From positions 26,228-90,227 of the forward strand of contig JAGQZQ010000001.1 in the NCBI GenBank assembly GCA_020435415.1: DNA of 64,000 nt, read 5' to 3'. Below are positions 1 to 56,000 of this stretch, in pieces. A model generated the notes under the pieces. The model saw only the letters and a program-made list of their open reading frames with translations, did not search any database and was not told the DNA's origin. The stretch is from Flavobacteriales bacterium (GTDB taxonomy: Bacteria; Bacteroidota; Bacteroidia; JACJYZ01). Position 1 is the stretch's first letter, and each line of letters begins with the position of its first letter. A program made the translations under genes and the position numbers.

Positions 1-284
1 AGTTGATAGTCGAGCTTTTTTTCCAGCTCCGCTATATACTTGTCCGCTGCCTTCGCTGCATATATCGCGAGGTTCTTCCCCCCTTTATAAAAGTAAATGT
101 CAAACTCCTGAAACCGGTAGAAGGTCCACAACATCTCTATGTGTTGTACCCTGTTCTGCCCGAAGGTCATCTGCGAACCATTGTAATACTGTGCCTGCGC
201 TCGTGGTGCAGATGCCACGACCAAAAGTATCGCCGGGATCAGCAGACGAAGAAACGTAATACGGGATGTTTTCGGTTGTTTCAA
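1..284 (-). CDS. Partial secreted hypothetical protein; the 5' end of the gene is in the window and the 3' end lies beyond coordinate 1
   Basis: Minus-strand frame with no stops from 284 down to 1. The upstream in-frame stop is at 351-353. The start is probably TTG at 282-284. N-terminus (M)KQPKTSRITFLRLLIPAILLVVASAPRAQA looks like a signal peptide. The plus-strand ORF 3..290 looks non-coding. Confidence 0.4.
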   Translation of the reverse strand, partial: MKQPKTSRITFLRLLIPAILLVVASAPRAQAQYYNGSQMTFGQNRVQHIEMLWTFYRFQEFDIYFYKGGKNLAIYAAKAADKYIAELEKKLDYQ

Positions 285-2406: not shown

Positions 2407-3699
2407 ATGAATACCGAACGTTCCGAGAAGTTATATGTAAAAGCACAAAGCCTTTTTCCGGGAGGCGTTAATTCTCCCGTCAGGGCATTCGGTGCCGTCA
2501 GCGGAGATCCGATATTTATTGCAAAGGGAAAGGGAGCCAGGTTATGGGATGTGGATGGAAATGAATACATCGACTTTTGTTGCTCCTGGGGTCCGCTTAT
2601 TCATGGCCATGTGCATCCGGAAGTGATGCGAAAGGTTGAAGAGGTCATGCACCTGGGTACATCGTTTGGGGCACCTACCGAACTGGAGAATCAACTGGCT
2701 TCTCTGATCATAGACAACAACCGGATGGTGGATACGCTCCGGTTTGTAAGCTCCGGGACGGAAGCCACCATGTCTGCCATCAGGCTTTCACGGGGTTATA
2801 CCGGACGCAACAAGATTCTGAAGTTCGAAGGTTGCTATCATGGTCATTCCGATGGCCTGCTGGTGAAGGCTGGCAGTGGACTGGCCACACTGGGCACCGC
2901 ATCGTCTGCCGGGGTTCCCGCCGGTTATGCGCGGGAAACCATCGTCATTCCTTTGGCCGATGAGGGCGCGCTTCAGGAAGCCTTTAAACAGCATGGTCAG
3001 GATCTGGCATGTGTGATCACAGAGCCTTTGCCTGCCAACAATGGTTTACTCAGACAGGACCCGGCATACCTTCGTTTGCTGCGTGAACTATGTACCAAGG
3101 CAGGCACGGTACTGATCTTTGATGAGGTGATCACAGGATTTCGTTTAGGTTTTGAAGGTGCGGCCGGATATTATGATATCATACCCGACCTGGTAACCTA
3201 TGGGAAGGTGATCGGTGGCGGGTTTCCCGTTGGCGCTTACGGCGGCAAACAAGAGATCATGGAACAGATCGCACCAAGCGGACCGGTATATCAGGCAGGC
3301 ACACTTTCGGGCAATCCGGTGGCCATGGCAGGTGGACTGGCCCAACTGAGCTTGTGTCTGCAGTCTGGCTTTTATGACCACCTGGCTGCCCGTACCCGTG
3401 AATTTTGTGAACGTATAACCGAAAGCGCCCGTCAAAGTGGCTTTCCTTTTTCCGTTGTTTCCGAAGGATCTATTTTCTTTTTAAGTCTGAATGAAATGGA
3501 ACCACCCAAAGCAGCCCATGAAATAGATCCGGCTGCTATCAAACTATTTTCAGAATGGCACAGGCTATTGCTGGAGGAAGGCGTCTATGTCGGACCGTCC
3601 GGCTATGAAGTTTGTTTCCTGAGTTCGGCCCACACAGATGAAGATCTGGACCAGGCCGCACAGGGCATTCAACGTTCCCTTGAAAGATTATTTTCCTGA
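2407..3699 (+). CDS. hemL: Glutamate-1-semialdehyde 2,1-aminomutase
   Basis: N-terminal LFPGGVNSPVRAF motif and a class-III aminotransferase body, about 430 aa. Confidence 0.9.
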   Translation: MNTERSEKLYVKAQSLFPGGVNSPVRAFGAVSGDPIFIAKGKGARLWDVDGNEYIDFCCSWGPLIHGHVHPEVMRKVEEVMHLGTSFGAPTELENQLASLIIDNNRMVDTLRFVSSGTEATMSAIRLSRGYTGRNKILKFEGCYHGHSDGLLVKAGSGLATLGTASSAGVPAGYARETIVIPLADEGALQEAFKQHGQDLACVITEPLPANNGLLRQDPAYLRLLRELCTKAGTVLIFDEVITGFRLGFEGAAGYYDIIPDLVTYGKVIGGGFPVGAYGGKQEIMEQIAPSGPVYQAGTLSGNPVAMAGGLAQLSLCLQSGFYDHLAARTREFCERITESARQSGFPFSVVSEGSIFFLSLNEMEPPKAAHEIDPAAIKLFSEWHRLLLEEGVYVGPSGYEVCFLSSAHTDEDLDQAAQGIQRSLERLFS

Positions 3700-8309: not shown

Positions 8310-10223
8310 ATGAAGAAGATCTACACTGTTGCAGGTGCTGCATTCTTCCTGGCTAATATTGCGTTTGCTCAGCGTACCAATATTGCTCCAGCAGAAGTGA
8401 GGCCCGGTGCACAAAATGAAGTCTCCACAAACGTGGCACATTCCCTGAATGCAGGTATTGATGCATTGGGTGATACCATATGGTCTGAGGATTTTTCAGG
8501 TGGCATTCCGGCCGGCTGGGAAATCATTGACCACACTACACCGGCCACTGGAAATGTATGGGAATATGCAAGCACAGATACTATTTCCTGTATCCTCACA
8601 AGCGCCATATTCAAAGCTACTTCCGCCAAAAATGGGTATGCATTGATGTTTGGTGACCGGTACAATGCTGACGCTGGTTGCCTTAACAATCTCGGTGTCA
8701 CCTTGATGAACACTTCTCTTCAGACCCCGGCTATGGATTATACAGGTTATACATCTGTATTTCTTAAATTTCAGCATGCGTTCCGGTATTGTTGTGATCC
8801 AGCTAGCAAGTTGAGTATTTATGTGTCGAATGACAGCACCTCCTGGAAAGAATATAACGTCAAGGGTACTTACCCGGTTAGTACAGGAGTTAAGGTCAAT
8901 GACAATTCGCCTAACCCAATGATGGCATCGGTTAATATTTCGGATATTGCAAGCGGTCAGTCAAAGGTTTGGATCCGCTGGCGGATAGATGGCCCTAGTC
9001 ACTACTACTGGGCGGTTGATGATGTTGCAGTTGTTGAAGGCTACACTGAAGAAAATGCACTTGTAAGGCCGTTTGTTGACTTCAATTATATGGATGGTGG
9101 TTTTTACTCCATGTTGCCAAGGAGTCAGGGAGCCACTACACCGATCGATTTTCGTGGCGCAATATACAACAATGGTACTTCCGCTCTCGCTAACGTTGTA
9201 CTTAACGTAAAGGTGAAGGATCCTTCCGGTGCTACAGTCTATGATGAGTCTTCCACCGCTATGTCAACGGTTCCCCTTGATCTTGACACTGTTTCAACCA
9301 GTACGTCATTCTATCCGGGTTCAACATGTAATGAAATCGGTCAATACTCGATTGATTACACGGTAAACCAAACCGAAACGGATCAGTACATGGCAAACAA
9401 TACCGCATCCTTTAATTTTGCGCTTTCCGACACTGTTTTTGCACGTGATTATGGTGTTGCCAACAAGGCCATTGGCCTGACAACATGGGCCTCTTGTTCG
9501 CAGAATGCGGATGGTGAGGAAATCAGCACATTATATGAATTCAGCAGTGATGCAGTAGCCACTTCTATTTCCTTTTATAATATGGCAAGCACTACTCCCG
9601 GCGTAGCAGTGATTCTTAATCTTTACCGCTTTCAGGTAGATGGAAACGGCGCAATTGTTCAAACCAGTCCTATTGCAGCATCTGAAATTTATGACATTGT
9701 TGCCGGTGACGCTAACTCCTGGATTACTTTACCATTTACCACCCCGGTGACTGTAGAAAAGGATAGTGCATTCATGGCATCCATATCCATCTATAATATT
9801 GCCGGTAAAAGCTTCTGGGTTGGTGGTGATCTCGCAACCATTCAGCCTGATGCCACCTCATTCGCATACTGCTCAGGCGGTTGGGGTTGGGTAAGTGATC
9901 AACCGATGATCCGACTGAATGTAAATGATGGAAGTGGTAACTACTGTGTAGGTGTAAATGAGGTCGAAAACCCTCATAAAGTGAAGGTATTTCCCAATCC
10001 GAACAATGGTTACTTCAATATCATTGCTGAGAACCTGAGAGGCAGGAATAGCACAATTCAAGTAACCAATGTAATTGGTCAGGTTGTCTATTCTAAGGAC
10101 GTATGCGTTTCTACTTCTTACCTGAGTGAAACGATAGATCTATCTTCAATTGAGAAAGGTTTATATTTTGTGAAGTTGATCAACAACAACTCCGAAAGCG
10201 TATACAAGGTGGTCGTGGAGTAA
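8310..10223 (+). CDS. Secreted protein with a T9SS C-terminal sorting domain (Por_Secre_tail)
   Basis: Signal peptide MKKIYTVAGAAFFLANIAFAQ. C-terminal roughly 80 aa KVFPNPNNGYF...LYFVKL...VYKVVVE is typical of a T9SS CTD. A TAnnTTTG -7 motif (TACCTTTG, 8238-8245) lies upstream. Confidence 0.8.
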   Translation: MKKIYTVAGAAFFLANIAFAQRTNIAPAEVRPGAQNEVSTNVAHSLNAGIDALGDTIWSEDFSGGIPAGWEIIDHTTPATGNVWEYASTDTISCILTSAIFKATSAKNGYALMFGDRYNADAGCLNNLGVTLMNTSLQTPAMDYTGYTSVFLKFQHAFRYCCDPASKLSIYVSNDSTSWKEYNVKGTYPVSTGVKVNDNSPNPMMASVNISDIASGQSKVWIRWRIDGPSHYYWAVDDVAVVEGYTEENALVRPFVDFNYMDGGFYSMLPRSQGATTPIDFRGAIYNNGTSALANVVLNVKVKDPSGATVYDESSTAMSTVPLDLDTVSTSTSFYPGSTCNEIGQYSIDYTVNQTETDQYMANNTASFNFALSDTVFARDYGVANKAIGLTTWASCSQNADGEEISTLYEFSSDAVATSISFYNMASTTPGVAVILNLYRFQVDGNGAIVQTSPIAASEIYDIVAGDANSWITLPFTTPVTVEKDSAFMASISIYNIAGKSFWVGGDLATIQPDATSFAYCSGGWGWVSDQPMIRLNVNDGSGNYCVGVNEVENPHKVKVFPNPNNGYFNIIAENLRGRNSTIQVTNVIGQVVYSKDVCVSTSYLSETIDLSSIEKGLYFVKLINNNSESVYKVVVE

Positions 10224-10249
10224 CCGCTTTAACTTACCCATTATAATAA

Positions 10250-10280
10250 AAGAGCCCGGGAAATTCCCGGGCTCTTTTAT
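10250..10280. terminator. Bidirectional rho-independent terminator between convergent genes
   Basis: aaaagAGCCCGGGaaattCCCGGGCTcttttatt: a GC stem flanked by an A-run and a T-run. Confidence 0.7.
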
Positions 10281-10337
10281 TATAATGATTATATGTGCCC
10301 ATACCTGCCCGCTCGAAGGTCAACAACCTCTTCCCAC

Positions 10338-18924: not shown

Positions 18925-20316
18925 TTACAGCGAACCGATCATCCTGGATGGATCCACCCATTCGGTGAACTGATCATCGGTAAGCAGATCGAGATCAATG
19001 GCTGCCTTCCTTAGGGTGCTTCCCTCCTGGTACGCCTTCTTTGCGATCTTAGCGGCATTCTCATATCCGATGTGGGTATTCAACGCGGTGACCAGCATCA
19101 GTGAATTCTCAAGGTTTTCCTTTACCCGGGGTGTATTGGCCTCAATACCTGCCACACAATTTGATAAGAAGGACTGGCTCGCGTCACCGATCAGCCTTGC
19201 TGCCATCAGGAAGTTATAGATCATCACCGGTTTGAAAACGTTGAGCTCGAAATGTCCTTGCATTCCGCCGGCAACGATGGCTGCATCATTTCCGATCACC
19301 TGAGCACAAACCATGGTCATGGCTTCACACTGGGTAGGATTTACCTTCCCGGGCATGATGGATGATCCGGGTTCATTGGCAGGGAGAATCAACTCACCAA
19401 TACCACACCGCGGACCTGAACCCAGTAAACGTATATCATTTGCGATCTTCATCAGGCTTACTGCCACCGTCTTCAGAGCACCCGATGCCTCTACAATGGC
19501 ATCATGCGCTGCCAACGCTTCAAACTTGTTTTCAGCGGAAACAAAAGGCAGACCTGTGAGCTCTGCAATCTGGTTCGCCACTTTCACCGCATATCCCTTC
19601 GGCGTGTTGATTCCTGTTCCAACCGCTGTTCCACCCAGGGCAAGCTCCGCCAGGTGAGGCAGTGCGTTGTTCAGCGCACGGATGCCATGATCGATCTGGC
19701 TGACATAACCGGAAAATTCCTGGCCCAGGGTAAGGGGCGTGGCATCCATCAGATGCGTGCGTCCGATCTTCACGATATCCGCGAACTGTGTAGCCTTGTC
19801 CTTAAGTCCATCACGAAGTGCCTCCAATCCCGGAATGGTATTCTCCACCACCATGCGGTATCCTGCGATATGCATGGCCGTGGGGAAGGTATCATTGGAA
19901 GATTGCGATTTATTCACGTCATCATTCGGATGAATGAATCGGTCTCCATCACCCAGCTTATTACCTTGAATCACGTGGGCACGGTTGGAGATCACCTCAT
20001 TCACGTTCATGTTAGACTGTGTACCTGATCCGGTTTGCCAAACGACCAGGGGAAACTCGTCATCCAGCTTGCCGGCAATGATCTCATCGCACACCTTCGC
20101 GATCAGTTCACTTTTTTCCGATGGCATAACGCCAAGGGCGGTATTTGTCAAGGCTGCTGCTTTTTTGAGATAGGCAAAAGCGTGGATCACCTCAACCGGC
20201 ATGTGTTGGCCGCCGATCTTAAAGTTCTCCCTGGAGCGTTGTGTTTGTGCTCCCCAATATTTACCGGCGGGGACTTTTACCTCGCCCATTGTATCTTTTT
20301 CAATTCTGTATTCCAT
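18925..20316 (-). CDS. fumC: Fumarate hydratase, class II
   Basis: [16 protein letters not shown] signature of the fumarase/aspartase family. N-terminus [17 protein letters not shown] is typical of FumC. Confidence 0.9.
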
Positions 20317-20340
20317 GTGACAGGGTTTTGTCGTGAAAAA

Positions 20341-20679
20341 TTATAGCAATGTTTTTACATTTTCCGGAGGTCGCCCGATAACGGCTTTGTTGCCACTGAC
20401 AACGATCGGTCTTTCAATAAGGATAGGGTTATTTGCCAGAACCTTAATCCATCCTCCTTCGGTGAGAGACTTTCCTTTATACTCCTCTTTATAAAGCTTC
20501 TCGGACTTCCTGATGATGTCCTCTGCTTTAAGTCCGAGCTTGTCAAGGATGGCCTTGAGTTCCTGCTCGGTCGGAGGTGTTTTAAGATATTCAACCACTT
20601 CGGTCTTTGCGCCCGAATCTTCAATAATCTGTAACGTCTGCCGACTTTTCTGACATCTCGGGTTGTGGTAGATCTTCAT
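20341..20679 (-). CDS. ArsC/Spx-family protein (YffB-like)
   Basis: MKIYHNPRCQKSR... is the N-terminal Cys motif of the ArsC family. Confidence 0.75.
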   Translation of the reverse strand: MKIYHNPRCQKSRQTLQIIEDSGAKTEVVEYLKTPPTEQELKAILDKLGLKAEDIIRKSEKLYKEEYKGKSLTEGGWIKVLANNPILIERPIVVSGNKAVIGRPPENVKTLL

Positions 20680-20692
20680 GACTAAGGTGTGA

Positions 20693-21782
20693 TTAGTTTC
20701 TTCCGAATTCCATCAGATACGCCTTGATAAACTCATCCAGATCCCCGTCCATCACATCCTGTACATTGGATGTTTCAATACCCGTACGCAGGTCTTTCAC
20801 CATTTTGTACGGGTGCATGACATAGTTCCTGATCTGGGATCCCCACTCGATCTTCTTCTTCTTACCCTCTTCCTCAGCCAACTTTTCCTGGCGTTTTCTC
20901 AGCTCAAGTTCATATAACTGTGACTTAAGCATTTTAAGCGCTTTCTCCTTATTTCTCAATTGGGAACGTTCCTCCTGGCACTCAATGATCAGGCCGCTGG
21001 GGGCATGTCTCACGCGGACAGCCGTTTCAACCTTGTTTACGTTTTGTCCGCCCGCACCACCGGAACGAAATGTATCCCATGTGATATCGGCATCCTTGAT
21101 CTCGATCTCAATATTATCATCTACCAGGGGGTAGGCATATACCGAAGCAAAGGAGGTATGTCTTTTGTTGGCAGAATCAAACGGGGACAACCGCACCAGG
21201 CGATGCACGCCATTCTCACCTTTGAGGTAACCGTAAGCAAGTGGGCCGTCAAACTCCAGGGAACACGTTTTGATGCCCGCCACATCTCCCTGCAGCAGGT
21301 TCACTTCTTTCACCTTGTAACCGTGCGCTTCCCCCCACATGATGTACATGCGCATAAGCATGGCTGCCCAATCCTGGCTCTCGGTCCCGCCTGCACCCGC
21401 ATTGATCTGAAGGATGGCACCCAATTGATCTTCTTCCTGGGAGAGCATGTTCTTGAATTCAAGATCCTCAACCAGTTTCAGCGTTTTATCGTATTGGGAC
21501 TGCACCTCCTCCTCACTGCTCTCACCCGCCTCATGGAACTCCATGAACACGGCCAGGTCATCAAATGCAGCTGCCGTCTCAAGATATGCTTTGGTCCATA
21601 CCTTAACGGCATTGACTTCCTTCATGACGGCTTCGGCTTTCTTGGGATCGTTCCAAAAATCCGGCTGTTGCGTAATGGCTTCCTTTTCCTTCAGGAATGT
21701 TTGTTTCCCATCGACGTCAAAGATGCCTCCTTAACGCATCCAGGCGCCTCTTCAATTCGTTCTTCTGTTCGTTGGATATCAT
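20693..21782 (-). CDS. prfB: Peptide chain release factor 2, needing a programmed +1 frameshift
   Basis: Frame 0 runs from ATG 21782 through [21 protein letters not shown] to CTT-TGA at 21722-21717. The +1 frame continues from GAC at 21718 as [13 protein letters not shown]...MKEVNAV... to the GGQ-containing body, ending at 20693. This is the classic CTT TGA C shift site, preceded by AGGAGG. Confidence 0.9.
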
Positions 21783-21832
21783 GGGCGCAAAGATAAAATA
21801 ATGTGCTTAAAATCCGCTGGCCTGAATACAGA

Positions 21833-22291
21833 TCAGGTATTGAGTATGTTCCGGACAGCTTTCCATACAAGGGCGGGCTCAAATCCTTTTCCGATCACAA
21901 AATCCGCAATCCGTTTGTTTACAGCCGGACCGGATCGGCCTGAGGTTCCTGCCTTTTTAAGTATCCAGGCATCCAGCGCTTCCTGGTATTCATCATCCGG
22001 GATCTCCTCCATGGCCTTTCGGATGCAGTATGGTGATATGTTCCGTTGTTTGAGCTCCAGGTTGATTCGGATCTTACCCCAACGCTTTATCCTGAACTTT
22101 CCGCGGGCGAATGCACGTGAAAACCGTTCTTCATTAATAAAGTTTTCCGTGATCAGGGAGGCGATGAGCAATTCAACATCCTGGCGGCCCAGTCCTAATG
22201 TATAGAGTTTTTTGCGCACTTCCTGCTGACAACGCTCCTGGTAAGCACAATAATGGCGGGCTTTTTCTAGTATTTCCGGGGAAACAGACAT
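21833..22291 (-). CDS. recX: Regulatory protein RecX
   Basis: 152 aa. Three-helix-repeat pattern and RecX-like sequence (CAYQERCQQEVRKKL...). Confidence 0.75.
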   Translation of the reverse strand: MSVSPEILEKARHYCAYQERCQQEVRKKLYTLGLGRQDVELLIASLITENFINEERFSRAFARGKFRIKRWGKIRINLELKQRNISPYCIRKAMEEIPDDEYQEALDAWILKKAGTSGRSGPAVNKRIADFVIGKGFEPALVWKAVRNILNT

Positions 22292-22489
22292 GGAAGGCGA
22301 AACTAAGTATTCTGTGTGTCACTTTTTGAATCATACCTATGAAAGTTTGAAATCCGGATGAAACGTCCTTCGAATAAGGGATTGAATGAATCCTTCTAAT
22401 TAAGATTACGTATATTAGCAGGTAGCTAGGGGTTTTACAGGAAGACCAATCCGGCAAGTAGAGTTTTTTACGCGTCACCTCCGATCAGT

Positions 22490-23638
22490 ATGTTCAGAAT
22501 CAGATTAACCGATCTTGCCCGAAGGACAGGCGTGTTTGGGCTCCTGTTGATAATTTGCTCTTCAGGAAGCGCCCAGCAAAAAGCAACGGGCGATGGTGAA
22601 CAATTGCCACTAGTCGACGGGTCCTGCGGTTCTCCTACAGGTCCGTTCTTCGAATGGGACGGTTCGTCCTACTCCAATTACACACAAGCCAACACAGCAG
22701 GTAAATGCAATAATAACCTCACAGCCGGGCAAACATATTGCTATACCTTTCTCTATCCATCCACCGGTAGCCTTAATTTGAAGATTTATGTTAACGGGAG
22801 CTGCGGTAATTGTGATGGCAGTTTTAGTATCAATTCCGACCCTGCTTGTACCGGTGGGTGCTGGGGGCCATTTTCCAGTTTCTCAGGTTGCACCAACACC
22901 CTTTATAACTCCAGTTGTTCTCTTCAGGAGTCCGGAGGATTTGAGATGGGAACCGGTTGCACCCCAGCCATTACATGTAATACTACTTTCACCTGGTGCT
23001 TTACAGTACCAGCAGGTTGCAGCACCCTGGACATATGTCCCTTATCCAACTGTTCGGCAGGTTCCAGCAATTGTGCCGGTGGGTTGCCGGTTAAGCTTAT
23101 GAATACTCTGATAGAAGAACATGGCGAGAAAATCTTTATGGCTTGGGTAACAGGCACCGAAGAGAATAACGACTATTTTACAGTAGAAAAATCCGATGAT
23201 GGAATTCATTATCAGTTACTGACTACGGTTCAGGGCTCAGGCAACAGTTTTAAGCCAAAAAAATACAGCATTTACGATACGGAACCATATCATGGCATGA
23301 ACTACTACCGACTGTCCCAAACCGATTATGATGGAAAAACAGAGGTGCTTGACCACCTTGCGGTAAATAAAGACCCGGAAGGATTATCCATTTCATCTCT
23401 CTACCCTAATCCAGCCAACGATCTTGCACACGTATCCATTACAACCGAAACCAGTGAGCAGGCGCAGGTCCAGATCATCGACATGACCGGAAGATTGCAT
23501 TACCAGTCTTTCTACGACCTGAACGAAGGCACCAATGTGATTTATCTTCCCACCAATGAACTGCCTCAAAGCACCTATTTCTTCAGAGTTACCACCAAAC
23601 GGGGCACGGAGTATATCCGGTTTGAGAAGGTCAACTAA
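22490..23638 (+). CDS. Cys-rich secreted protein with a T9SS C-terminal sorting domain
   Basis: Signal peptide, about 30 Cys in the N-terminal 170 aa, and a C-terminal LYPNPANDL...YFFRV...RFEKVN T9SS CTD. Confidence 0.75.
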   Translation: MFRIRLTDLARRTGVFGLLLIICSSGSAQQKATGDGEQLPLVDGSCGSPTGPFFEWDGSSYSNYTQANTAGKCNNNLTAGQTYCYTFLYPSTGSLNLKIYVNGSCGNCDGSFSINSDPACTGGCWGPFSSFSGCTNTLYNSSCSLQESGGFEMGTGCTPAITCNTTFTWCFTVPAGCSTLDICPLSNCSAGSSNCAGGLPVKLMNTLIEEHGEKIFMAWVTGTEENNDYFTVEKSDDGIHYQLLTTVQGSGNSFKPKKYSIYDTEPYHGMNYYRLSQTDYDGKTEVLDHLAVNKDPEGLSISSLYPNPANDLAHVSITTETSEQAQVQIIDMTGRLHYQSFYDLNEGTNVIYLPTNELPQSTYFFRVTTKRGTEYIRFEKVN

Positions 23639-23808
23639 CCCTTCAGGGTGAACAATTATTTTCACAGTTTATGTTATCGGGATTTTATTACCTTTGCAGC
23701 CGTTCTTGATTGATAGTCGTAAGTCGCTAGTAGTTAGTAGTAAGTATATAGGCTACCGATGAATGTTATGTTTTTTCGACTAGCGACTAACTACTCAGTA
23801 CTAATTTT

Positions 23809-23889
23809 GGTGCGGTAGCTCAGTTGGTACCTGCCTGCCGTCGCGCAGACCAGGGCATCGGCAGGCAGGGAGCAAAGGACTGAAAATCC
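23809..23889 (+). pseudogene. Truncated second copy of the tRNA-Phe 5' half, with a 40-nt hairpin insertion in the D-loop
   Basis: ggtgcggtagctcagttggta + [cctgcctgccg..18 nt..cggcaggcagg] + gagcaaaggactgaaaatcc matches the 5' half of the real tRNA. After that it diverges and has no T-arm or acceptor 3' strand. A TAATTTTG -7-like motif sits at 23802-23809. Confidence 0.6.
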
Positions 23890-23966
23890 CTCCACACCAT
23901 TAAAGGTTGAGGTATTAAGTAAGGTAGGGATGGTTAATGGTGAGGAATAAGTAAAATATAAATACT

Positions 23967-24039
23967 GGTGCGGTAGCTCAGTTGGTAGAGCAAAGGACTG
24001 AAAATCCTTGTGTCGGGGGTTCGACTCCCTCCCGCACCA
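23967..24039 (+). tRNA. tRNA-Phe (anticodon GAA)
   Basis: Cloverleaf: GGTGCGG acceptor stem, D-arm AGCTCAGTTGGTAGAGC, anticodon loop CTGAAAA, T-arm GGTTCGACTCC, 3' CCGCACCA. Confidence 0.9.
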
Positions 24040-24040
24040 C

Positions 24041-24110
24041 AAAAACAGTTTGGAGCAAGAGCATACAGCATACAGTCCGTGCGGTAAGCTTCCTTGCTCC
24101 AAATTGTTTT
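24041..24110 (+). terminator. Long hairpin followed by a T-run, immediately after tRNA-Phe
   Basis: aaaaacagtttggagcaag ... cttgctccaaattgttttt: a 19-bp stem with one G:T wobble and a 32-nt loop. Confidence 0.5.
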
Positions 24111-24392
24111 TGTCCCTGTTGCTGTATGCTCAAACTGTATGCTCACTAGTATGTTGAGATAAACCCGTCAATGACTGTTTCCCTCCCACCAATAATTATC
24201 CCCAATCACTTACAATTACCAAACCTACCTGTCTATACGAAGGCTTGTGCAATAGCAGCCAGGTCGTCAATTTGACGGTTCGAAGTCATGTCGGTCAGCA
24301 CCACGAAAACAGCAACAGCATACAGTGAGTACATGCTGACCGTATGCTCTTGTTATTTTCGTCCTGTTGCTGTATGCTCACACTGTATGCAG
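24111..24392. repeat. Pair of 28-nt direct repeats (24115-24142 and 24363-24390, one mismatch), with inverted partial copies between them
   Basis: cctgttgctgtatgctcaMactgtatgc occurs twice. The reverse-complement fragment gcatacagcatacagt is at 24061-24076, and agcaacagcatacagtgag is at 24311-24329. Confidence 0.6.
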
Positions 24393-24395
24393 ATT

Positions 24396-25703
24396 TCAAA
24401 ACCTCACCCCAATCACCAGGATATCATCCACCTGTTCCTCGCTTCCTTTCCATTTCGTGAATTGTTCTTCAAGGATACGTTTCTGCTCGACGATGTCCTT
24501 GTCATGTATTTCCTTTAAAAGATCTCTGAACTTTTTCGTTTTGAATTTTTTACCCGTCCGTTCCCCGAACTGGTCTGCAAATCCATCGGTAAAGAGATAC
24601 ATCATATCCCCTTCCTGATACGGCACATGTTTGTCCTGAAATTGTTCCACCCCATTGATGTGTTTTCCGGCAATCGGGTAACGATCACCCTCCACTATGT
24701 TAAGTTCTCCTTTTCGGAACATGTACATAGGGCGCATAGCTCCTGCAAAGGCTATGGTCTTCTCCTCCCGATCGATACTGCATAAGCCGATATCCATACC
24801 ATCAGGAGACTCTACCGACTCATGGGCCTGGTTCAATAATTGCCTGATATGCTGATGGAGTTTGTTCAGGATGCCGGCCGGATCAGTCAGACGCTGCCCT
24901 TCCACCAGCAGATTGAGTTGCGTGAAGCCCAGCATTGACATCATAGCGCCCGGTACACCGTGACCCGTGCAATCAGCCACTGCCAGTATATCCCTGTTCC
25001 TGACACTTGCATGCCAGTAAAAATCACCGCTAACGATATCCTTTGGTTTAAAGAAAACAAATGAATTCGGGAGGCTTCCTGCCAATTCCTTTCCCTTTGG
25101 AAGAATCGCACTTTGTATCTTCCGTGCATAGCGAAGGCTTTCTCTGATCAGTTGATTTTGCTCTTCGACCTTTTCCTTTTCCTTCTCCAGATCAATTGTC
25201 CTTGACCGCACCTTTTCCTCCAGGCCCTCGTTCAGTACCTTCAATTCTGAATTAACGGAGTCGAGCATCTTCAAACTATTTTCCAATTCCTGACTCACCC
25301 TTTCCCGCTCCTTCAGCAGGTTTTGACGCTCAATGGCATATCTGATGGACTTCTCCATGAGGTAGTCGTCATATTTTCCCTTCTCCAGGTAATCCTGGGC
25401 ACCCAACTGTATGGCCCTCACTGCGGTCTTATGATCTGACAAACCTGTCATGATGATGATGGGAAGATGCGGGTACTTCTTTTTGATCTCAGTATATCCA
25501 TCCAGATGGGAACTGTCCGGCAGAGACAAATCCAGCAACATCACATCCACGTGGTAGCGTTTTAAGATATCCAGTCCTTCGCTCACCCTACTGGCGATAT
25601 GAAGCGCAGACCCCCTTAGGTTGGTAGAATCGAACAATTCACGAAAGAATTGCTGATCGACCGGGTTATCCTCAATCATCAATATCGACAGATCCCTATT
25701 CAT
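24396..25703 (-). CDS. Response regulator: receiver domain plus PP2C-type Ser/Thr phosphatase (RsbU-like)
   Basis: N-terminal REC (LSILMIEDNPVD..., Asp pocket), a central coiled coil, then a C-terminal PP2C/SpoIIE domain (SGDFYW...DCTGHGVPGAMMSM...FTDG). ATG at 25703 lies 2 nt after the stop of the upstream RR gene. Confidence 0.8.
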   Translation of the reverse strand: MNRDLSILMIEDNPVDQQFFRELFDSTNLRGSALHIASRVSEGLDILKRYHVDVMLLDLSLPDSSHLDGYTEIKKKYPHLPIIIMTGLSDHKTAVRAIQLGAQDYLEKGKYDDYLMEKSIRYAIERQNLLKERERVSQELENSLKMLDSVNSELKVLNEGLEEKVRSRTIDLEKEKEKVEEQNQLIRESLRYARKIQSAILPKGKELAGSLPNSFVFFKPKDIVSGDFYWHASVRNRDILAVADCTGHGVPGAMMSMLGFTQLNLLVEGQRLTDPAGILNKLHQHIRQLLNQAHESVESPDGMDIGLCSIDREEKTIAFAGAMRPMYMFRKGELNIVEGDRYPIAGKHINGVEQFQDKHVPYQEGDMMYLFTDGFADQFGERTGKKFKTKKFRDLLKEIHDKDIVEQKRILEEQFTKWKGSEEQVDDILVIGVRF

Positions 25704-26151
25704 GATTTTTTGGCAATCGGGCAGTCTGGAACCAGAACTGTTCGATTTGTCTGGCCACCTCAAAGAAGTGGTCGAGATCAACAGGTTTTGTGACATAACA
25801 ATTGGCATGATCATTATAACAAGCTTGAATATCCTGCTCGGAGGTGGAGGTGGTAAGTACGACAACCGGAATCTGTCTGAGCTTCTGATCCATCTTGATC
25901 TCTGCAAGCACCTCTCTTCCGTCCTTTTTCGGCAGATTCAGATCCAGCATGATCAGATCCGGTGTGGGTACTCCTTCGTAGCCGGAGATCTTTCTCAGAA
26001 ATTGCAAAGCCTTGATTCCGTCTGTCACTATATGAATATTGAACTCATGGTAATTTCTTTCCATGGCGGTTTGCGTCAGCTCGATGTCCTCCGGGCTGTC
26101 TTCTACAAGCAACACCTGTATGGGGTAATGAGGTTTATTTTCTGTGTCCAT
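25696..26151 (-). CDS. Single-domain CheY-like response regulator
   Basis: 151 aa. VLLVEDSPEDIELT...LIMLDLNLPKKDG...VVVLTTS. is the REC fold. Confidence 0.85.
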   Translation of the reverse strand: MDTENKPHYPIQVLLVEDSPEDIELTQTAMERNYHEFNIHIVTDGIKALQFLRKISGYEGVPTPDLIMLDLNLPKKDGREVLAEIKMDQKLRQIPVVVLTTSTSEQDIQACYNDHANCYVTKPVDLDHFFEVARQIEQFWFQTARLPKNHE

Positions 26152-26159
26152 ATACGGAA

Positions 26160-27353
26160 CTATTTAGGTAACGTGAAATGAAACGTGGTGCCCTTTCCGA
26201 GGCTTGACTCTACCCATATCTCACCGCCATGCTTGGTCACGACTTTCTGGCACATGGCGAGACCGATCCCAGTCCCCTCATATTCCTCTCTGGTATGCAG
26301 TCTTTGAAAGATGATGAATATGCGTTTAAAGAAATCCTCTTCAATCCCAATTCCATTATCCTTGACAAAGAATTGCCAGTAACCATCCACCTCATTGGCG
26401 CCCACTTCTATCACCGGACTCACACCTTCACGCCGGAATTTGATGGCATTGCCGATAAGGTTCTGGAACAGGAGTTGAAGTTGGGCGTTGATTCCCGGAA
26501 CCGTTGGAAGCGGACCGACTTTAATGTGCGCATTGCATTCGGAAATCCGAATCCTGAGATCGGTCATCACCTTCTGAACCAGATCAGCCACGTCTACCTG
26601 CTCAATATCCTCATCATTGGTATTTGAAAGTCTTGAATAGGTCAGAAGGGCTTCTATCAACTGTTTCATCCTCTTGGTTCCATCCACAGCCACATTAATG
26701 TACCGCTCGCCTTTCTCATCCAGCGTATCCTTTATATGGTTTTGCAACAGTTGCAAATAACTTGTAATGGCCCGCAATGGCTCCTGAAGGTCATGGGATG
26801 CCACATAGGCGAATTGCTCCAATTCCCTATTGGATCGTTGCAAGGCTTCGGTGCGCTCCTGTATGCGGATTTCAAGGAACTTATGACTTTGCTTCAACTC
26901 TTGCTCCTGGGTATATTTCTCCACAAAGAACTGAACCTTGTTGAGCAGAACCTGAGGATCGAACGGTTTGGTGATATAGCTGAACGCACCTTTTTCATAG
27001 CCTTTAAATACATTGATGTTTGATGTATAAATGGCTGAGATGAATATGAAAGGCATCCGGGCCGTCTTTTCTTCGGAGCGCAGGATTTCTGCCAACTCAT
27101 ATCCGTCCATCTCAGGCATCTGAATATCCAACAGGGCAAGCGCAAAGTCGTGTCTCAGCGTGAGCTTTAGTGCCTCGTTCCCGCTGCTTGCGCGGAACAG
27201 TTCAACATCAAGGTCCTTCATCAGCCGCTCGAGTGCAATCAGGTTCTCAGGCCTGTCATCAACCATCAGAATTTTGGGCCTGTCAATTCTCAGGTCCTTT
27301 TCAGGACTGGACACCTCATGCGGTTGGTCCATGGTCATCATTCCTTTATCCAT
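26160..27353 (-). CDS. Receiver-histidine kinase fusion (REC + HisKA + HATPase_c)
   Basis: N-terminal REC (ILMVDDRPENL...LLDIQMPEMDG), H-box SHDLQEPLRAI, and a C-terminal ATPase with G-box GTGIGLAMC. The start overlaps the 3' end of the upstream hybrid HK gene. Confidence 0.8.
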   Translation of the reverse strand: MDKGMMTMDQPHEVSSPEKDLRIDRPKILMVDDRPENLIALERLMKDLDVELFRASSGNEALKLTLRHDFALALLDIQMPEMDGYELAEILRSEEKTARMPFIFISAIYTSNINVFKGYEKGAFSYITKPFDPQVLLNKVQFFVEKYTQEQELKQSHKFLEIRIQERTEALQRSNRELEQFAYVASHDLQEPLRAITSYLQLLQNHIKDTLDEKGERYINVAVDGTKRMKQLIEALLTYSRLSNTNDEDIEQVDVADLVQKVMTDLRIRISECNAHIKVGPLPTVPGINAQLQLLFQNLIGNAIKFRREGVSPVIEVGANEVDGYWQFFVKDNGIGIEEDFFKRIFIIFQRLHTREEYEGTGIGLAMCQKVVTKHGGEIWVESSLGKGTTFHFTLPK

Positions 27354-30300
27354 ATTCTCATAAGTGAAAGTAAGCGTTCAATATCCACTGGTTTTGATAT
27401 ATAGTCGTTGGCGCCGGCATCTATGCACTTCTGCCTGTCTTCTTTCATGGCTTTTGCTGTAAGAGCGATAATGGGAAGATTACGGAACTGCGTATTTTTT
27501 CTGATCTCACGCATGCAGTCGTATCCATCCATTTCCGGCATCATGATATCCATCAGGACGATATCCGGGTGCGGTTGTTCCTTGAGTGCTTCGAGGGCCA
27601 CTATACCATTCTCAGCCTTTGAAATAATGAAGCCCTGGTCCTTGAGCACCTTGGACAGTGCGAAAATGTTGCGCATGTCGTCATCAACCAGAAGCACATG
27701 TTTATCGTGAAAGAGTCGTTCCTTGTCATATAAACTGGTGATCATTCCCTGCTTTTTATCCGGGAGGTTGTTCACCGTACGATGCAGGAACAGGGCGGTC
27801 TCATCCAACAAACGTTCTTCGCTTTTCACGCCTTTGATGATGATGGAATCCGCTGACATTCTGAGTTCTTCATTCTCTTCCCTGGTGAGCTCTTTTCCGG
27901 TATACACAATAATGGGCGGGACCTTCTTCTCCTTTTTTCTTTCCTCCAGCATGTGTATCAATTCAAAGCCCGTCATATCCGGCAATCCGATATCCAGCAC
28001 CATACAATCCACCTGCTGGTTATCGAGAATCTCCAGTGCCTGTTTTCCGGTTGACGCTTCAACACATTTCACGTCGCCGTTACCTATCAGTTTTTTAATC
28101 GACTTTCTCATCACGTTGTTATCCTCCACAATGAGGAGGTTCTTCATTTTACGATTGATAAAGTCCTCTATCCTGGAGAATGCTTCTTCCAGCTGCGGTT
28201 TGGTCACAGGCTTGGTCAGGTATTCAAGTGCTCCGGAACGAATAGGATCCAGGGTTTTTTCATTCACAGACATGATGTGCACCGGAATGTGACGTAGTGC
28301 CGGATTTCCCTTTAACTCCTTCAACACCATATGTCCGTCGATGCCCGGCAGATCAATATCCAGCAAAATCGCATGGGGCATAAATTTGGAAGCCAGCGCA
28401 AGTCCGTCTTCACCCGTGGTCGCCGCCAGGTATTTGAATCCTTTTTCATTTGCCTGTTTGGCCAGGACCCGTGCAAAGCCAAGATCATCATCAATGATGA
28501 GCATACATAGATCATCCTTCGTTATCTGATCCCTTTGATCATCAATTCCCGGGACATTCAGATAGCGATTATCCGTAAATGACACCGGCTGTTTAGGTTC
28601 ATGTTTCACCCACACTTCCTCCGCCGGTTTACCGTCCCCTTTGCTTATTATTAGTGGTATTGACAAGGTAAAAGTGGAACCTTTTCCGGCATCACTTTCA
28701 AGGCTGATATTTCCTCCGAGTAGTTTGGCCAACTCACGGGAGATGGACAGCCCCAGGCCGGTACCGCCATATTTACGTGCCGTCCCACCATCGGCCTGTT
28801 GGAAAGCTTCAAAGATCACATCCTGCTTGTCCTTGGGAATCCCTATTCCTGTATCGGAAACCATGACATTCAGATTACTTCCTGCATCTTTCCGGAAGGT
28901 TATTTTCACACTTCCTTCTTCCGTAAACTTCAAGGCATTTGATATCAGATTCTTGATCACCTGATCCATTCTCTGACGGTCGGTTTGAATGGTTTCAGGA
29001 ACGCCATCTTCTACAACCACACTCAAATCCAAACCCTTCTCAGATGCCTGTCTCTTGAAATTCCTCCGAATGTCAGCAGCTATTTCATGTACCGTCACCT
29101 TTGAAATATTCAGGTCCATCTTACCAGCCTCGATCTTGGAAAGATCCAGTATTTCATTGATCAGAATCAGAAGATCCTGTCCGCTTTTGCTAATAACCTG
29201 CGCACTTTCCACCTGATCTTCAGTCAGGTTCTTTTCCTTGTTGGCGGATAAGTCACCGGCAAGAATCAACAAGCTGTTCAGAGGCGTACGCAGTTCATGG
29301 CTCATGTTGGCCAGGAATTCACTTTTGTATTTGCTGCTTATTTCCAGTTGCTTTGCCTTCAGTTCAATATCCGTTCTGGCGGTTTCCAGGTCCTTGTTCT
29401 TTTGCTCCACCACCTGGGTTTGTTCTTCCAGTTCTTCGTTGGCGGCCTGCAGTTCTTCCTGTTGCTCCTTGAGTTTCTGGGCCTGTTCTTCCAACTCCTC
29501 ATTGCTTTGCTGCAATTCCTCCTGCTGGGTTTGCAGCTCACCGTTCAGCTTTTGCATGGCGGCCTGCTGTTCCTTGAGTTCTGTGATCTCAAACCTGACG
29601 GAAATGAATTTTTCGATCTTACCATTGACGTTTAGAATGGGGACAATGGTCGTATCCACCCAATAGTAACTTCCATCTTTGGCCTTGTTGATAATCTCAC
29701 CACTCCATACCCTACCCGTTGTGATGGCTTTCCACATACCCACGAACAAGCCGTCCGGTTGTTTGCCGGACTTAAGCATGCGGTGATTCTGGCCTATTAA
29801 TTCTTCGCGGGGGAACTTGGACACTTTCACAAATCGGTCGTTGACATAGGTGATATTTCCATCCACATCGGTAATGGAGACCAGAGCCACGTCATTCAGT
29901 CCTTCCAGTTGCTGCTCAATCTCCCGTTTGGCATTGGCCAATTGCGTACCTTTTTCCGTAGCTTCATCCAGCAACTGCTGAATCTTCATTTTGGTAATCG
30001 CAGTATTCACTGCCACTCCAAGCGTTTCCATGCTCCCCTTCACAAATTCCAACTGAATTTCTTCGAATGCCTGTGGCTTGCCAAGCTCGATAACCCCGAG
30101 TGAGCGGTCCTCAAACAGGAAGGGACTCACCAGGACGTTCCGCGGTGGTATATCCACCAATGTGGATTTCACCCGGATGCTCTTCTCGTCCACGTCATGG
30201 AGCATGATGGGTTTCTTCGCAGAAGCCACCTGACCAATCAGACCTTCACCCATTCCATACCTGCCGTTGCCATCGCTATTTGAGAATGCATATTTCCCTG

Positions 30301-31276
30301 CGAGTTCCAGGTCATTTCTTTGTTCGTTTTTAAGGTATACCGAACCGATATTGGCCTCCGTGTAATTGGCAATGAATTCGATCACATCATTCACCAGGGT
30401 GGTCACATCCTTATCTCCCTGAATCACATCGCTGAGTTCATTCTTTCCGGTACTCAGCCATTTGTACTGTTGGGTTTCCTGTTCTTTCTTAATCAGCGCG
30501 TCCCTCATGCGAACCATCGCATTTCCAAGCGCTGCCAACTCCGTAGACCCACTCACCGATATATCTGTGTCCAGATTTCCGTCACCAATATTTTCAGCCA
30601 CGTTCACTGCTCTGGCCACGGGCCTCACAATCGAACGCGTAATGAACCATGAGAAAATGATACAGAGTATGGAGAGAAATGCAAGTAGAGACCATTCCAC
30701 CGTGATCATATTACTCAATTGTGCCGTTGTCAGGACCTGATCATCATTCATAAATTTCTCCTGCTTCCGGCGCATGGCGTCTATCAAACCGGTGATCTCC
30801 TTATTGAGATTGACCATTTTACTCTCTATAAGATCTTCGGCGGCCTGCTGGTTGGTTGCGGCAACGTTCTCCACCTCGGTCTGGTACTGGTCTAACGTTT
30901 GCAACAAACCTTCCAGTCGGTTCACCTCATTCACCCAGGCCTCATGCTCCTCCATCTTCACCTTTTCCGTAAGCCCTTTCAACACGGCCATTGGCGGCCT
31001 GATCTCTTCATCCCATATCTTTCTTCGGCCTGACCTGTTGGTATCCTTACCCAGCATCACCCATCCACGAAGCTGGGAAATGCTTTGATGTACGCCTGCC
31101 ATCAATTCCAGGTCGGCATTTAAGGCCGGAGCCCTGAGCGTGTGAAGCCTGTCAGCGGTGGCATCTACATTTTCTGCCATCGAAATGATGATCAATACAG
31201 AAATGATCAGGGAGATGATCATCGCTCCATAACCGAAGCTGATTTTCTTTCCTATCGAGTCAAGCTTGAAATTCAT
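27338..31276 (-). CDS. Large hybrid sensor histidine kinase with an MCP-like sensor + HAMP + GAF + PAS + Q/E-rich coiled coil + HisKA + HATPase_c + three receiver domains
   Basis: 1312 aa. TM1, roughly 150 aa periplasmic helical region, TM2, then a HAMP-like segment. Central GAF/PAS region. Tandem QEELQ(Q/A)(S/A)NEELEEQ repeats. H-box MSHELRTPLNS. G-box GGTGLGLSISRELAKLLGG. Three REC domains (LIIDDD..., LLIVEDN..., LLVDDD...IVLMDIMMPEMDG). Confidence 0.85.
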   Translation of the reverse strand: MNFKLDSIGKKISFGYGAMIISLIISVLIIISMAENVDATADRLHTLRAPALNADLELMAGVHQSISQLRGWVMLGKDTNRSGRRKIWDEEIRPPMAVLKGLTEKVKMEEHEAWVNEVNRLEGLLQTLDQYQTEVENVAATNQQAAEDLIESKMVNLNKEITGLIDAMRRKQEKFMNDDQVLTTAQLSNMITVEWSLLAFLSILCIIFSWFITRSIVRPVARAVNVAENIGDGNLDTDISVSGSTELAALGNAMVRMRDALIKKEQETQQYKWLSTGKNELSDVIQGDKDVTTLVNDVIEFIANYTEANIGSVYLKNEQRNDLELAGKYAFSNSDGNGRYGMGEGLIGQVASAKKPIMLHDVDEKSIRVKSTLVDIPPRNVLVSPFLFEDRSLGVIELGKPQAFEEIQLEFVKGSMETLGVAVNTAITKMKIQQLLDEATEKGTQLANAKREIEQQLEGLNDVALVSITDVDGNITYVNDRFVKVSKFPREELIGQNHRMLKSGKQPDGLFVGMWKAITTGRVWSGEIINKAKDGSYYWVDTTIVPILNVNGKIEKFISVRFEITELKEQQAAMQKLNGELQTQQEELQQSNEELEEQAQKLKEQQEELQAANEELEEQTQVVEQKNKDLETARTDIELKAKQLEISSKYKSEFLANMSHELRTPLNSLLILAGDLSANKEKNLTEDQVESAQVISKSGQDLLILINEILDLSKIEAGKMDLNISKVTVHEIAADIRRNFKRQASEKGLDLSVVVEDGVPETIQTDRQRMDQVIKNLISNALKFTEEGSVKITFRKDAGSNLNVMVSDTGIGIPKDKQDVIFEAFQQADGGTARKYGGTGLGLSISRELAKLLGGNISLESDAGKGSTFTLSIPLIISKGDGKPAEEVWVKHEPKQPVSFTDNRYLNVPGIDDQRDQITKDDLCMLIIDDDLGFARVLAKQANEKGFKYLAATTGEDGLALASKFMPHAILLDIDLPGIDGHMVLKELKGNPALRHIPVHIMSVNEKTLDPIRSGALEYLTKPVTKPQLEEAFSRIEDFINRKMKNLLIVEDNNVMRKSIKKLIGNGDVKCVEASTGKQALEILDNQQVDCMVLDIGLPDMTGFELIHMLEERKKEKKVPPIIVYTGKELTREENEELRMSADSIIIKGVKSEERLLDETALFLHRTVNNLPDKKQGMITSLYDKERLFHDKHVLLVDDDMRNIFALSKVLKDQGFIISKAENGIVALEALKEQPHPDIVLMDIMMPEMDGYDCMREIRKNTQFRNLPIIALTAKAMKEDRQKCIDAGANDYISKPVDIERLLSLMRIWIKE

Positions 31277-55830: not shown

Positions 55831-55902
55831 AACTGATGTTTTAATACCTCACAAATATCGGAATTATCGGCCAATACAGGAAATCTAACGGTTTATGGTC
55901 TA

Positions 55903-55960
55903 AAGTTTAAGGTTTAATGTTTAAGGTTGGTCCGAACCTTAAACATTAAACCTTAAACCT
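55903..55960. promoter_or_regulatory. Perfect inverted repeat, 26-bp arms around a 6-nt spacer, in the fbp / GNAT divergent promoter region
   Basis: Left arm 55903-55928 (aagtttaaggtttaatgtttaaggtt), spacer ggtccg, right arm 55935-55960. The right arm is the exact reverse complement of the left. Confidence 0.8.
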
Positions 55961-56000
55961 TAAACCATCTATTCCTTACCTTTGACACAAATTACAGCCC

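Follow-up and report, generated by a model that had tools for sequence, protein, structure and literature searches.

A split copy of tRNA-Phe upstream of the intact gene

The window analyzed here is a stretch of 64,000 nucleotides (64 kb) from a Flavobacteriales metagenome-assembled genome (MAG; GenBank assembly GCA_020435415.1, contig JAGQZQ010000001.1, positions 26,228 to 90,227). It carries an intact tRNA-Phe (GAA) gene preceded by a second, partial copy of the same gene that is interrupted by a hairpin (Table 1). This split copy, and the class of nuclease gene cassettes to which it is probably related, are the subject of this report. Together, the two pieces of the copy match nucleotides 1-41 of the intact tRNA at 41/41 positions with no mismatch. 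The first piece comprises the acceptor 5' strand, the D-stem 5' strand and the D-loop as far as A21; the second comprises the D-stem 3' strand and the anticodon arm. A repeat search pairs 23803-23829 with 23961-23987 (27 nt, 93% identity), within which the tRNA part is perfect. The hairpin sits exactly between A21 and G22, such that its excision restores the tRNA sequence with no duplicated base.

Table 1. Features of the tRNA-Phe locus, in window coordinates
Feature	Position	Strand	Details
Candidate native -7 box of the tRNA-Phe locus, TACCTTTG followed by C	23689..23696	+	Motif search
Imperfect hairpin, 17-nt arms, short word-like repeats	23715..23795	.	Inverted repeats 23715-23731 and 23729-23745 versus 23779-23795
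TAnnTTTG motif, TAATTTTG	23802..23809	+	Motif search; last base is nucleotide 1 of the tRNA copy
Partial tRNA-Phe copy, nt 1-21	23809..23829	+	21/21 identical to 23967-23987
Hairpin, 40 nt	23830..23869	+	11-bp perfect stem CCTGCCTGCCG/CGGCAGGCAGG, loop TCGCGCAGACCAGGGCAT (18 nt)
Partial tRNA-Phe copy, nt 22-41	23870..23889	+	20/20 identical to 23988-24007
Spacer, 77 nt, at the usual place of the nuclease gene	23890..23966	+	Inverted repeat, 13-nt arms, 23891-23903/23934-23946
Possible tRNA 3' acceptor-end remnant, CTCCACACCA	23890..23899	+	Local alignment to CTCCCGCACCA
Intact tRNA-Phe (GAA)	23967..24040	+	ARAGORN; Rfam RF00005, 74 bits
Hairpin, 21-nt arms	24039..24113	.	Begins at the tRNA 3' end, ends in a T-rich run

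An initial annotation had described the copy of the first 41 nucleotides and its interruption in the D-loop by a 40-nt hairpin with an 11-bp perfect stem. Both observations are confirmed, and the distance between the copy and the intact gene is refined to 77 nt. In agreement with its earlier description as a pseudo-half, the copy is not a functional tRNA: ARAGORN and Rfam RF00005 make no call in 23809-23899 and recognize the intact gene alone. The annotation also stated that no T-arm follows the copy. The T-arm is indeed absent, but ten nucleotides at the start of the spacer may be a remnant of a 3' acceptor end. The local alignment of CTCCACACCA to CTCCCGCACCA is equaled by 2.2% of shuffled 14-mers (chance P of approximately 0.02). 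This likeness suggests that the copy may descend from a whole tRNA whose variable loop and T-arm were later deleted.

The hairpin occurs once in the window and has no match in 100 shuffles. Its region folds well both as DNA and as RNA (z-scores of -3.9 and -3.1), better than shuffled sequences. A terminator scan finds nothing at 23830-23880, where the hairpin stem is followed by GAGCAAAGG. In the predicted fold of the tRNA precursor, the acceptor strand of the copy competes for the 3' strand of the real tRNA. The intactness of the copy (41/41) and of the stem (11/11) implies that the structure is young or maintained, and a promoter-like motif lies ahead of it. These properties are compatible with a selected RNA or DNA element of the tRNA-Phe operon, such as a processing or stability leader, a decoy or a protein-binding site. 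Such a role is nonetheless quite improbable. The sequence identity can be accounted for if the copy arose recently or was converted by the gene next to it, neither the copy nor the hairpin has an Rfam match at thresholds up to E <= 10, and no orthologous locus was found that could show conservation.

Hairpin-split tRNA duplicates accompany GIY-YIG nuclease genes

When genomes, one per species, were scanned for the same stem enclosing any loop of 10-30 nt, at least 120 loci were recovered from many phyla (loci are designated here by L numbers). Among the stem matches listed, many are unrelated G+C-rich palindromes or resemble repetitive extragenic palindromic (REP) elements. In several, however, part of a neighboring tRNA is duplicated and the stem lies within the duplicate, at the D-loop position seen in the window. 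Such hairpin-split duplicates are found for tRNA-Phe in Patescibacteria (L052), tRNA-Arg (L109, L072) and tRNA-Leu (L048, L086), and in all five a small open reading frame (ORF) lies between the split 5' copy and the intact tRNA. At L078 the hairpin is in a 3' duplicate instead: the ORF immediately precedes the intact tRNA, which is followed by the split copy. The two tRNA-Phe loci L052 and L137 read ..GCTCAGTGGTA[palindrome]GAG..CTGAAAAT, followed by a GIY-YIG nuclease gene (PF01541 matches with E values of 3e-13 and 5e-17) and then by intact tRNA-Phe. The L137 copy is split after GGTA, exactly as in the window.

A strict scan for hairpin-split tRNA duplicates, covering every fetched locus, yields 38 cases. 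In 37 of these a GIY-YIG gene is present within 700 nt, the window being the single case without one. Twenty-six of the 38 duplicates are split at linear nucleotides 20-23. The same association emerges from a hairpin-independent sample of 80 metagenome loci picked by protein similarity alone. Here, 53 loci have a same-strand tRNA that starts -19 to +106 nt from the end of the protein match. These tRNAs are mostly tRNA-Arg, which may partly reflect the query, with Phe, Asn, Gln, Leu, Met and Glu also represented. A tRNA 5' duplicate is located upstream of the gene in 37 of the 54 loci that could be evaluated, and it is nearly always split by a G+C-rich palindrome.

The intact cassette thus defined has the order tRNA promoter, palindrome-split 5' duplicate, short leader, GIY-YIG gene and intact tRNA, with the 3' end of the nuclease gene abutting or overlapping the tRNA. 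The palindrome interrupts the duplicate mostly at A21/G22. At L072, L109 and L052 the nuclease frame runs into the tRNA and its stop codon lies inside; for L072 and L109 the stop is the TAG of the tRNA D-loop. RNase P cutting of such a precursor would leave an mRNA without a stop codon.

The architecture is present in cultured Bacteroidota, namely Olivibacter (L202, tRNA-Arg) and Paucihalobacter (L072, two tandem units), as well as in a Weeksellaceae MAG (L201, tRNA-Asn). This bears on the concern that the window sequence itself comes from a MAG and that assembly can generate palindromes. It is hardly credible that the window feature is an artefact of assembly or a chance resemblance, given that isolates and dozens of independent assemblies share the architecture, that the 41/41 identity is split at exactly one point and that the hairpin is absent from shuffles.

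Gene-less units of the same build adjoin tRNAs at L127, L123 and L189. The tRNA-Arg units of L189 share the looped hairpin of the window (CCTGCCTGCCGTCGCGCAG...), having an identical stem and identical first eight loop bases, although a single stem base differs in one of the two copies. At this locus it is the copy following the gene that is split, and another intact tRNA serves the cell. Loops related to that of the window hairpin also occur at L017, L118, L082, L092, L024, L090 and L110. A metagenome scan for GGTA[stem..stem]GAGC has no match, and a viral scan for TA[palindrome]G returns L238 alone.

Several individual loci have peculiarities of their own. At L189 (1664-1770), a tRNA-Arg predicted by ARAGORN and by Rfam (32 bits) has its start within the 3' arm of the palindrome and is a false call. 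L238 (500-900) is a full cassette on an IMG/VR contig in which the tRNA copy 3' of the gene is interrupted by an insert after the anticodon stem, and ARAGORN calls no tRNA there. At L048 (approximately 3140-3300), a 3' pseudo-copy downstream of the intact tRNA-Leu carries three palindrome units in tandem at the position of the D-loop, and its T-arm contains another, related hairpin.

Rfam searches of the window region and of five cassette loci identify tRNA only, with no family for the hairpin or the leader. No description of the cassette was found in the open-access full-text literature, in which the palindrome sequence was also searched. The class is widespread in Bacteroidota and Patescibacteria, and apparently undescribed.

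Promoter motifs

The Bacteroidota -7 motif TAnnTTTG occurs within 80 nt upstream of 26/42 split copies as compared to 3/42 intact tRNAs. In cassettes it is mostly located 7-18 nt before the split copy and has the form TAnnTTTGC. Its association with the split copies indicates that the native tRNA promoter stays there, so that both the nuclease gene and the intact tRNA are downstream of it.

In the window, the corresponding distances are atypical. The initial annotation had pointed to a TAnnTTTG motif directly before the copy and had proposed that the copy is transcribed as a leader of the real tRNA. The motif TAATTTTG does exist, but it overlaps nucleotide 1 of the copy rather than preceding it by 7-18 nt, and its start site would therefore fall within the copy. 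A promoter role for this motif is thus unsupported. A box 112 nt away, whose context (TACCTTTGC) is TAnnTTTGC, like the boxes of cassettes, seems from its sequence to be the better candidate promoter. The 77 nt preceding the intact tRNA-Phe contain no TAnnTTTG. Transcription of the copy as a leader remains reasonable from the position of the motif in the family as a whole.

The nuclease

Cassette ORFs encode stand-alone GIY-YIG domains of 80-90 amino acids (PF01541) that are of the UPF0213/Slx1 type, with UPF0213 proteins and SLX1 as their closest solved relatives. The catalytic residues Y6, Y17, G19, R27, H31 and E73 are invariant in the alignment. An alignment-based search recovers more than 7,000 clustered relatives, mostly from Bacteroidota and Patescibacteria, and these are named only 'GIY-YIG nuclease family protein'. 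A tblastn search of 50,697 phage records with the family protein of L072 gives no match.

The palindrome co-varies with the nuclease

The commonest cassette palindrome is CCTGCCTGCCGGCAGGCAGG. The window hairpin, whose stem has the form CCTGCCTGCC(G)/(C)GGCAGGCAGG, is a looped member of the CCTGCCTGCC/GGCAGGCAGG family. Nearly all loci have a G+C-rich hairpin 12-70 nt ahead of the start codon, including those in which the flanking sequence derived from the tRNA has decayed. The hairpin is therefore tied to the nuclease gene and not to the tRNA, which further reduces the case for a selected element of the tRNA-Phe operon.

Palindrome type follows the nuclease protein tree. The CCTGCCTGCC type occurs with two clades, while a CCCGCCCG-loop-CGGGCGGG palindrome, placed after nucleotide 17, occurs with the 'YKGHC' clade. 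The palindrome and the gene are thus not independent. The exact 20-mer CCTGCCTGCCGGCAGGCAGG is common to 17 loci whose proteins are a median of 55% identical, which implies that the palindrome is under tighter constraint than the protein. Variant stems carry both G-T and C-A mismatches, a wobble pattern that does not separate pairing at the RNA level from pairing at the DNA level.

Palindromes also occur alone at many places that are not tRNAs. The exact 20-mer is present in 35 stretches of viral contigs, far above chance, most of them solo copies and one the full cassette of L238. On two viral contigs (L231, 2239-2330; L208, approximately 8590-8660) it occupies the variable-loop position of an otherwise complete tRNA-Met with no nuclease gene nearby. 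ARAGORN calls the interrupted tRNA-Met as a tRNA with a long extra arm, and the L208 version has lost part of its T-arm; tRNA-Met may tolerate the palindrome at this position. Some split copies contain two or three palindromes (L122, L136, L173, L185, L048), indicating that insertion recurs.

Solo copies and extended forms show additional features. The solo 20-mers at L209 (1652-1687), L215 (8382-8429) and L225 (approximately 3384-3417) are flanked by 7-14 nt direct repeats of local sequence (CACAGAGA, TCTCGTCTCTCGCT and TTGCGGA). These look like target duplications, unlike the insertions in tRNAs, which have none. At L141 and L174 the palindrome, upstream of or beside the GIY-YIG gene, is split at its center by an insert of approximately 95 nt, comparable to the 18-nt loop in the window; such centrally split palindromes suggest nested insertion at the palindrome center. 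Opitutae and relatives (L016, L044, L065, L099, L113) have long palindromes tagged GTAGCGGCAGGCGTC...GACGCCTGCCGCTAC around a CCTGCCTGCC core, and in Isosphaera/Planctomycetia (L022, L031, L077) the core is embedded in another extended palindrome, GGGGCAGGCATT...AATGCCTGCCCC, which lacks the GTAG tag. Both sets look like classical REP families, GTAG-tagged in Opitutae, that have the core through descent or convergence. A fixed target motif was considered and not adopted: TA/G is common inside tRNA copies but absent at solo copies.

Origin of the window locus

The window locus is probably a gene-less derivative of a nuclease cassette that now serves only as a transcribed leader. The split half copy would be the left part of a cassette that invaded the tRNA gene, and the nuclease gene would have been lost by internal deletion. 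What is left would comprise the promoter, the split copy, the hairpin, approximately 40 nt of leader, an ATG and approximately 34 nt of decayed C-terminal coding sequence. This remainder is most likely inert except as a 5' leader of approximately 160 nt on the tRNA-Phe precursor, from which RNase P would remove it.

The spacer offers a possible trace of the missing gene. It contains an ATG at 23930, directly followed by its best match (23933-23956) to the C-terminal codons of the nuclease, as scored by a weight matrix built from the codons of the conserved C-terminal motif GxG[KR]E[FY][LI]K. The score of this match is 7.3 bits (in shuffled spacers, P = 0.028; a fraction of only 7e-5 of the positions in the window does as well), and its distance from the tRNA is the one usual for the nuclease C-terminus. 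With no nuclease gene and such a faint trace, the window is filed as a gene-less derivative and not as a complete member of the cassette class. BLAST comparisons of the spacer and of the upstream and downstream regions with all fetched loci give meaningful matches from the hairpin only. A spacer 7-mer, GGTGAGG, was considered as a third tRNA 5' end and was dropped because it is within chance expectation.

Several observations weigh against derivation from a cassette. The putative C-terminal trace is weak and was tested post hoc, once it had been noticed. A six-frame profile search at full sensitivity detects no GIY-YIG signal in the spacer or in the whole window, and nhmmer comparison of cassette 3' ends with the spacer is not significant. 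The hairpin is present once in the 64 kb. A flanking type IX secretion system (T9SS) protein has a best homologue outside the source MAG that is only 42% identical, leaving no orthologous locus for comparison. If the ten nucleotides after the copy do derive from a 3' acceptor end, a tandem tRNA copy that was once complete would be a better fit than the truncated split copy typical of cassettes. At the level of the family, an identical Olivibacter protein is found at one locus in many assemblies, which suggests long vertical residence. Finally, the mobility of the cassette and the action of its nuclease on the palindrome or on tRNA genes are both things that we infer.

The main alternative, if a rather unlikely one, is that the window locus never contained a nuclease gene. 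A tandem duplication of tRNA-Phe would have provided a redundant copy, a mobile palindrome of the CCTGCCTGCC family would have entered its D-loop, and the T-arm would have been lost by microhomology deletion. The resemblance of CTCCACACCA to a tRNA 3' end is in keeping with this history, as is the presence of TCC repeats at the boundaries of the implied 21-nt deletion. So are the palindromes at non-tRNA sites, those of L231 and L208 that interrupt tRNA-Met with no nuclease gene nearby, the recurrent insertion seen in split copies with two or three palindromes, and the absence of a significant ORF remnant from the window. It accounts poorly, however, for the nuclease gene within 700 nt of 37/38 strict hairpin-split duplicates, for the tracking of nuclease clades by palindrome type, and for a C-terminal trace, albeit weak, at the right distance from the tRNA. 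It would also require a palindrome of 20-40 nt to move on its own and without duplicating its target, for which no mechanism is known.

The initial annotation thus holds in part. Its suggestion that the hairpin belongs to a dispersed palindrome family is borne out by the genome and viral scans, and its proposal of a scar or miniature of an insertion event is supported. A MITE (miniature inverted-repeat transposable element) in the strict sense does not fit, with neither a target-site duplication nor terminal inverted repeats beyond the hairpin's own stem. The link to GIY-YIG nuclease cassettes was missed.

A possible two-part mobile system

If the cassette is mobile, it could spread in the manner of a free-standing homing endonuclease gene that uses tRNA sequence as homology. 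The 5' duplication would regenerate an intact tRNA and keep the host alive. Homing would be in line with the several tRNA species that are targeted, the tandem units of L072 and the patchy spread over two phyla. The palindrome may be the cognate structured site of the nuclease, acting as a cruciform or hairpin substrate, as an operator or as an mRNA 5' hairpin. The combination of a catalytic-domain-only relative of Slx1 with a constant perfect palindrome suggests hairpin or cruciform cleavage or binding, but the operator and mRNA hairpin roles are equally open.

Because the structure amounts to a tandem duplication, the true ends of the mobile unit are ambiguous. It can be described as a unit [palindrome - tRNA 22..k - gene - tRNA 1..21] inserted at 21/22. 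Alternatively, a circle with a split tRNA 5' part might integrate by recombination within nucleotides 1-21, or a break in the tRNA gene might be followed by copying of the unit from a donor. The tandem units (L072), the nested gene-less units (L127, L123) and L189 are in keeping with either unequal exchange or more than one entry at a single point.

A broader proposal is put forward tentatively. The 20-bp palindrome (CCTGCCTGCC.GGCAGGCAGG and variants) and the minimal 80-amino-acid GIY-YIG nuclease may together constitute a two-part mobile system that parasitizes tRNA genes. It would enter at structural junctions, chiefly A21/G22, regenerate the tRNA by means of a carried or created 5' duplicate, borrow the tRNA promoter, and leave behind solo palindromes and gene-less miniatures, of which the window locus would be one. 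If this is true, the mechanism of transposition or homing has no described counterpart, and part of the UPF0213/YhbQ family acquires a function.

The window feature itself is most probably inert, a relic that represents in small and decayed form an apparently large class, and it is in the class that the interest lies. A tRNA-wedged clade with a co-varying palindrome provides a testable hypothesis for stand-alone UPF0213/YhbQ-type GIY-YIG proteins, so far without assigned function. The arrangement exemplifies a way for a selfish gene to settle in an essential gene while the host survives. Hairpin-split tRNA fragments also escape tRNA finders and can be misread, as the false tRNA of L189 illustrates, and a minimal nuclease with a defined 20-bp partner could interest enzymologists.

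Surroundings of the locus and other features of the window

Genes for tRNAs are common integration sites, and the initial annotation had invoked tRNA-Phe as a classic integration hotspot. A direct repeat of tRNA sequence is indeed present, as it would be at an attachment-site scar left by an integrase-mediated island or prophage. This origin is extremely unlikely here. The repeat is of the 5' part and not of the 3' end, and the copies are only 77 nt apart. The neighbors are housekeeping genes (fumarase, ArsC, release factor 2, RecX and two-component proteins), the eight flanking ORFs scanned (18925-31276) include neither an integrase nor any phage gene, and no compositional break is seen at the locus. 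The housekeeping neighbors and the lack of an integrase rule out an ordinary attachment-site scar.

The imperfect hairpin between the candidate promoter and the tRNA copy is possibly a separate small insertion. Its words read AGTCGTAAGTCGCTAGTAGTTAGTAGTAAGT ... ACTAGCGACTAACTACT, and similar word-like flanks surround CCTGCC palindromes at the Bacteroidota loci L075, L087, L098, L103 and L110. The hairpin at the tRNA 3' end is likely a terminator, part of a repeated element, or both. Two hairpin-forming repeat copies of approximately 100 nt lie 3' of tRNA-Phe (24039-24142, which starts at the tRNA 3' end, and 24296-24392) and share a 35-nt block, TTTT.TCCCTGTTGCTGTATGCTCA.ACTGTATGC (89%), and GCATACAG inverted repeats. 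This repeat may be a terminator-bearing miniature element.

Farther away, the PCRF match of the release-factor ORF (20693-21625, minus strand) begins at profile position 28, in keeping with a prfB gene that has the usual programmed +1 frameshift and the N-terminal part in another frame. A long A+T-rich hairpin at 55890-55968 has 34-nt arms that are 94% complementary, with GGTTTAA-type word repeats. The perfect palindrome at 10239-10287 (24-nt arms, CATTATAATAAAAGAGCCCGGGAA/TTCCCGGGCTCTTTTATTATAATG) is probably a bidirectional terminator.

Comparison with known systems

Integrase-type events duplicate the 3' end of a tRNA and bring a tyrosine integrase and kilobases of cargo. Like the resulting islands and prophages, the cassette inserts in a tRNA gene and has a duplicated tRNA segment that keeps the tRNA functional. 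It differs in duplicating the 5' part, in lacking an integrase and in having no more than one 250-nt gene as cargo. MITEs and palindrome elements derived from IS200/IS605 offer another parallel, since they include gene-less miniatures, form hairpins and insert without target duplication. The cassette, however, has no TnpA/TnpB partner and no pair of left and right ends, and its solo copies share no target oligonucleotide.

The nearest formal analogue of the palindrome/gene pair is provided by REP/REPIN elements and their RAYT transposases (PMC3733652). REPs too are short, dispersed G+C-rich palindromes that flank and co-vary with a single-copy nuclease-type gene, and their solo copies are more numerous than the gene. 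The RAYT enzymes belong to the HUH tyrosine transposases, whereas the cassette enzyme is a GIY-YIG nuclease. One end of a REP bears a GTAG or CGTC tag (PMC3733652). The window hairpin has no REP tag: its flanks are GGTA and GAGC, and the insertion splits the D-loop sequence GTA/G. REPs are also not tied to tRNA duplicates, and the window hairpin is present in one copy in 64 kb.

By sequence, the closest relatives of the cassette nuclease are UPF0213, YhbQ, YazA and Slx1 (PDB 1zg2, 1ywl; PMC7017083). Slx1 is a structure-selective nuclease, a property that fits a hairpin or cruciform partner. Unlike the cassette nuclease, it has a C-terminal zinc finger and needs Slx4. Bacterial members of the UPF0213/YhbQ/YazA group have no assigned function (PMC7017083), and no link of UPF0213, YhbQ or Slx1 to tRNA genes or palindromes is reported in the open-access papers searched.

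Functionally, the nearest analogue is SegB of phage T4, a GIY-YIG homing endonuclease whose gene is likewise lodged among tRNA genes and whose site includes the conserved T-psi-C stem-loop motif (PMC2330249). SegB spreads by cutting an allele that lacks its gene, into which the gene is then copied with its flanks (PMC2330249). SegB is a full-length protein with a 27-bp site, whereas the cassette proteins, at 80-90 amino acids, consist of the catalytic domain only. It is a phage gene, while the cassette family protein is without a match in the phage records searched and its homing would be by analogy. SegB is accompanied by neither a partial tRNA duplication nor a palindrome; both are present in the cassette.

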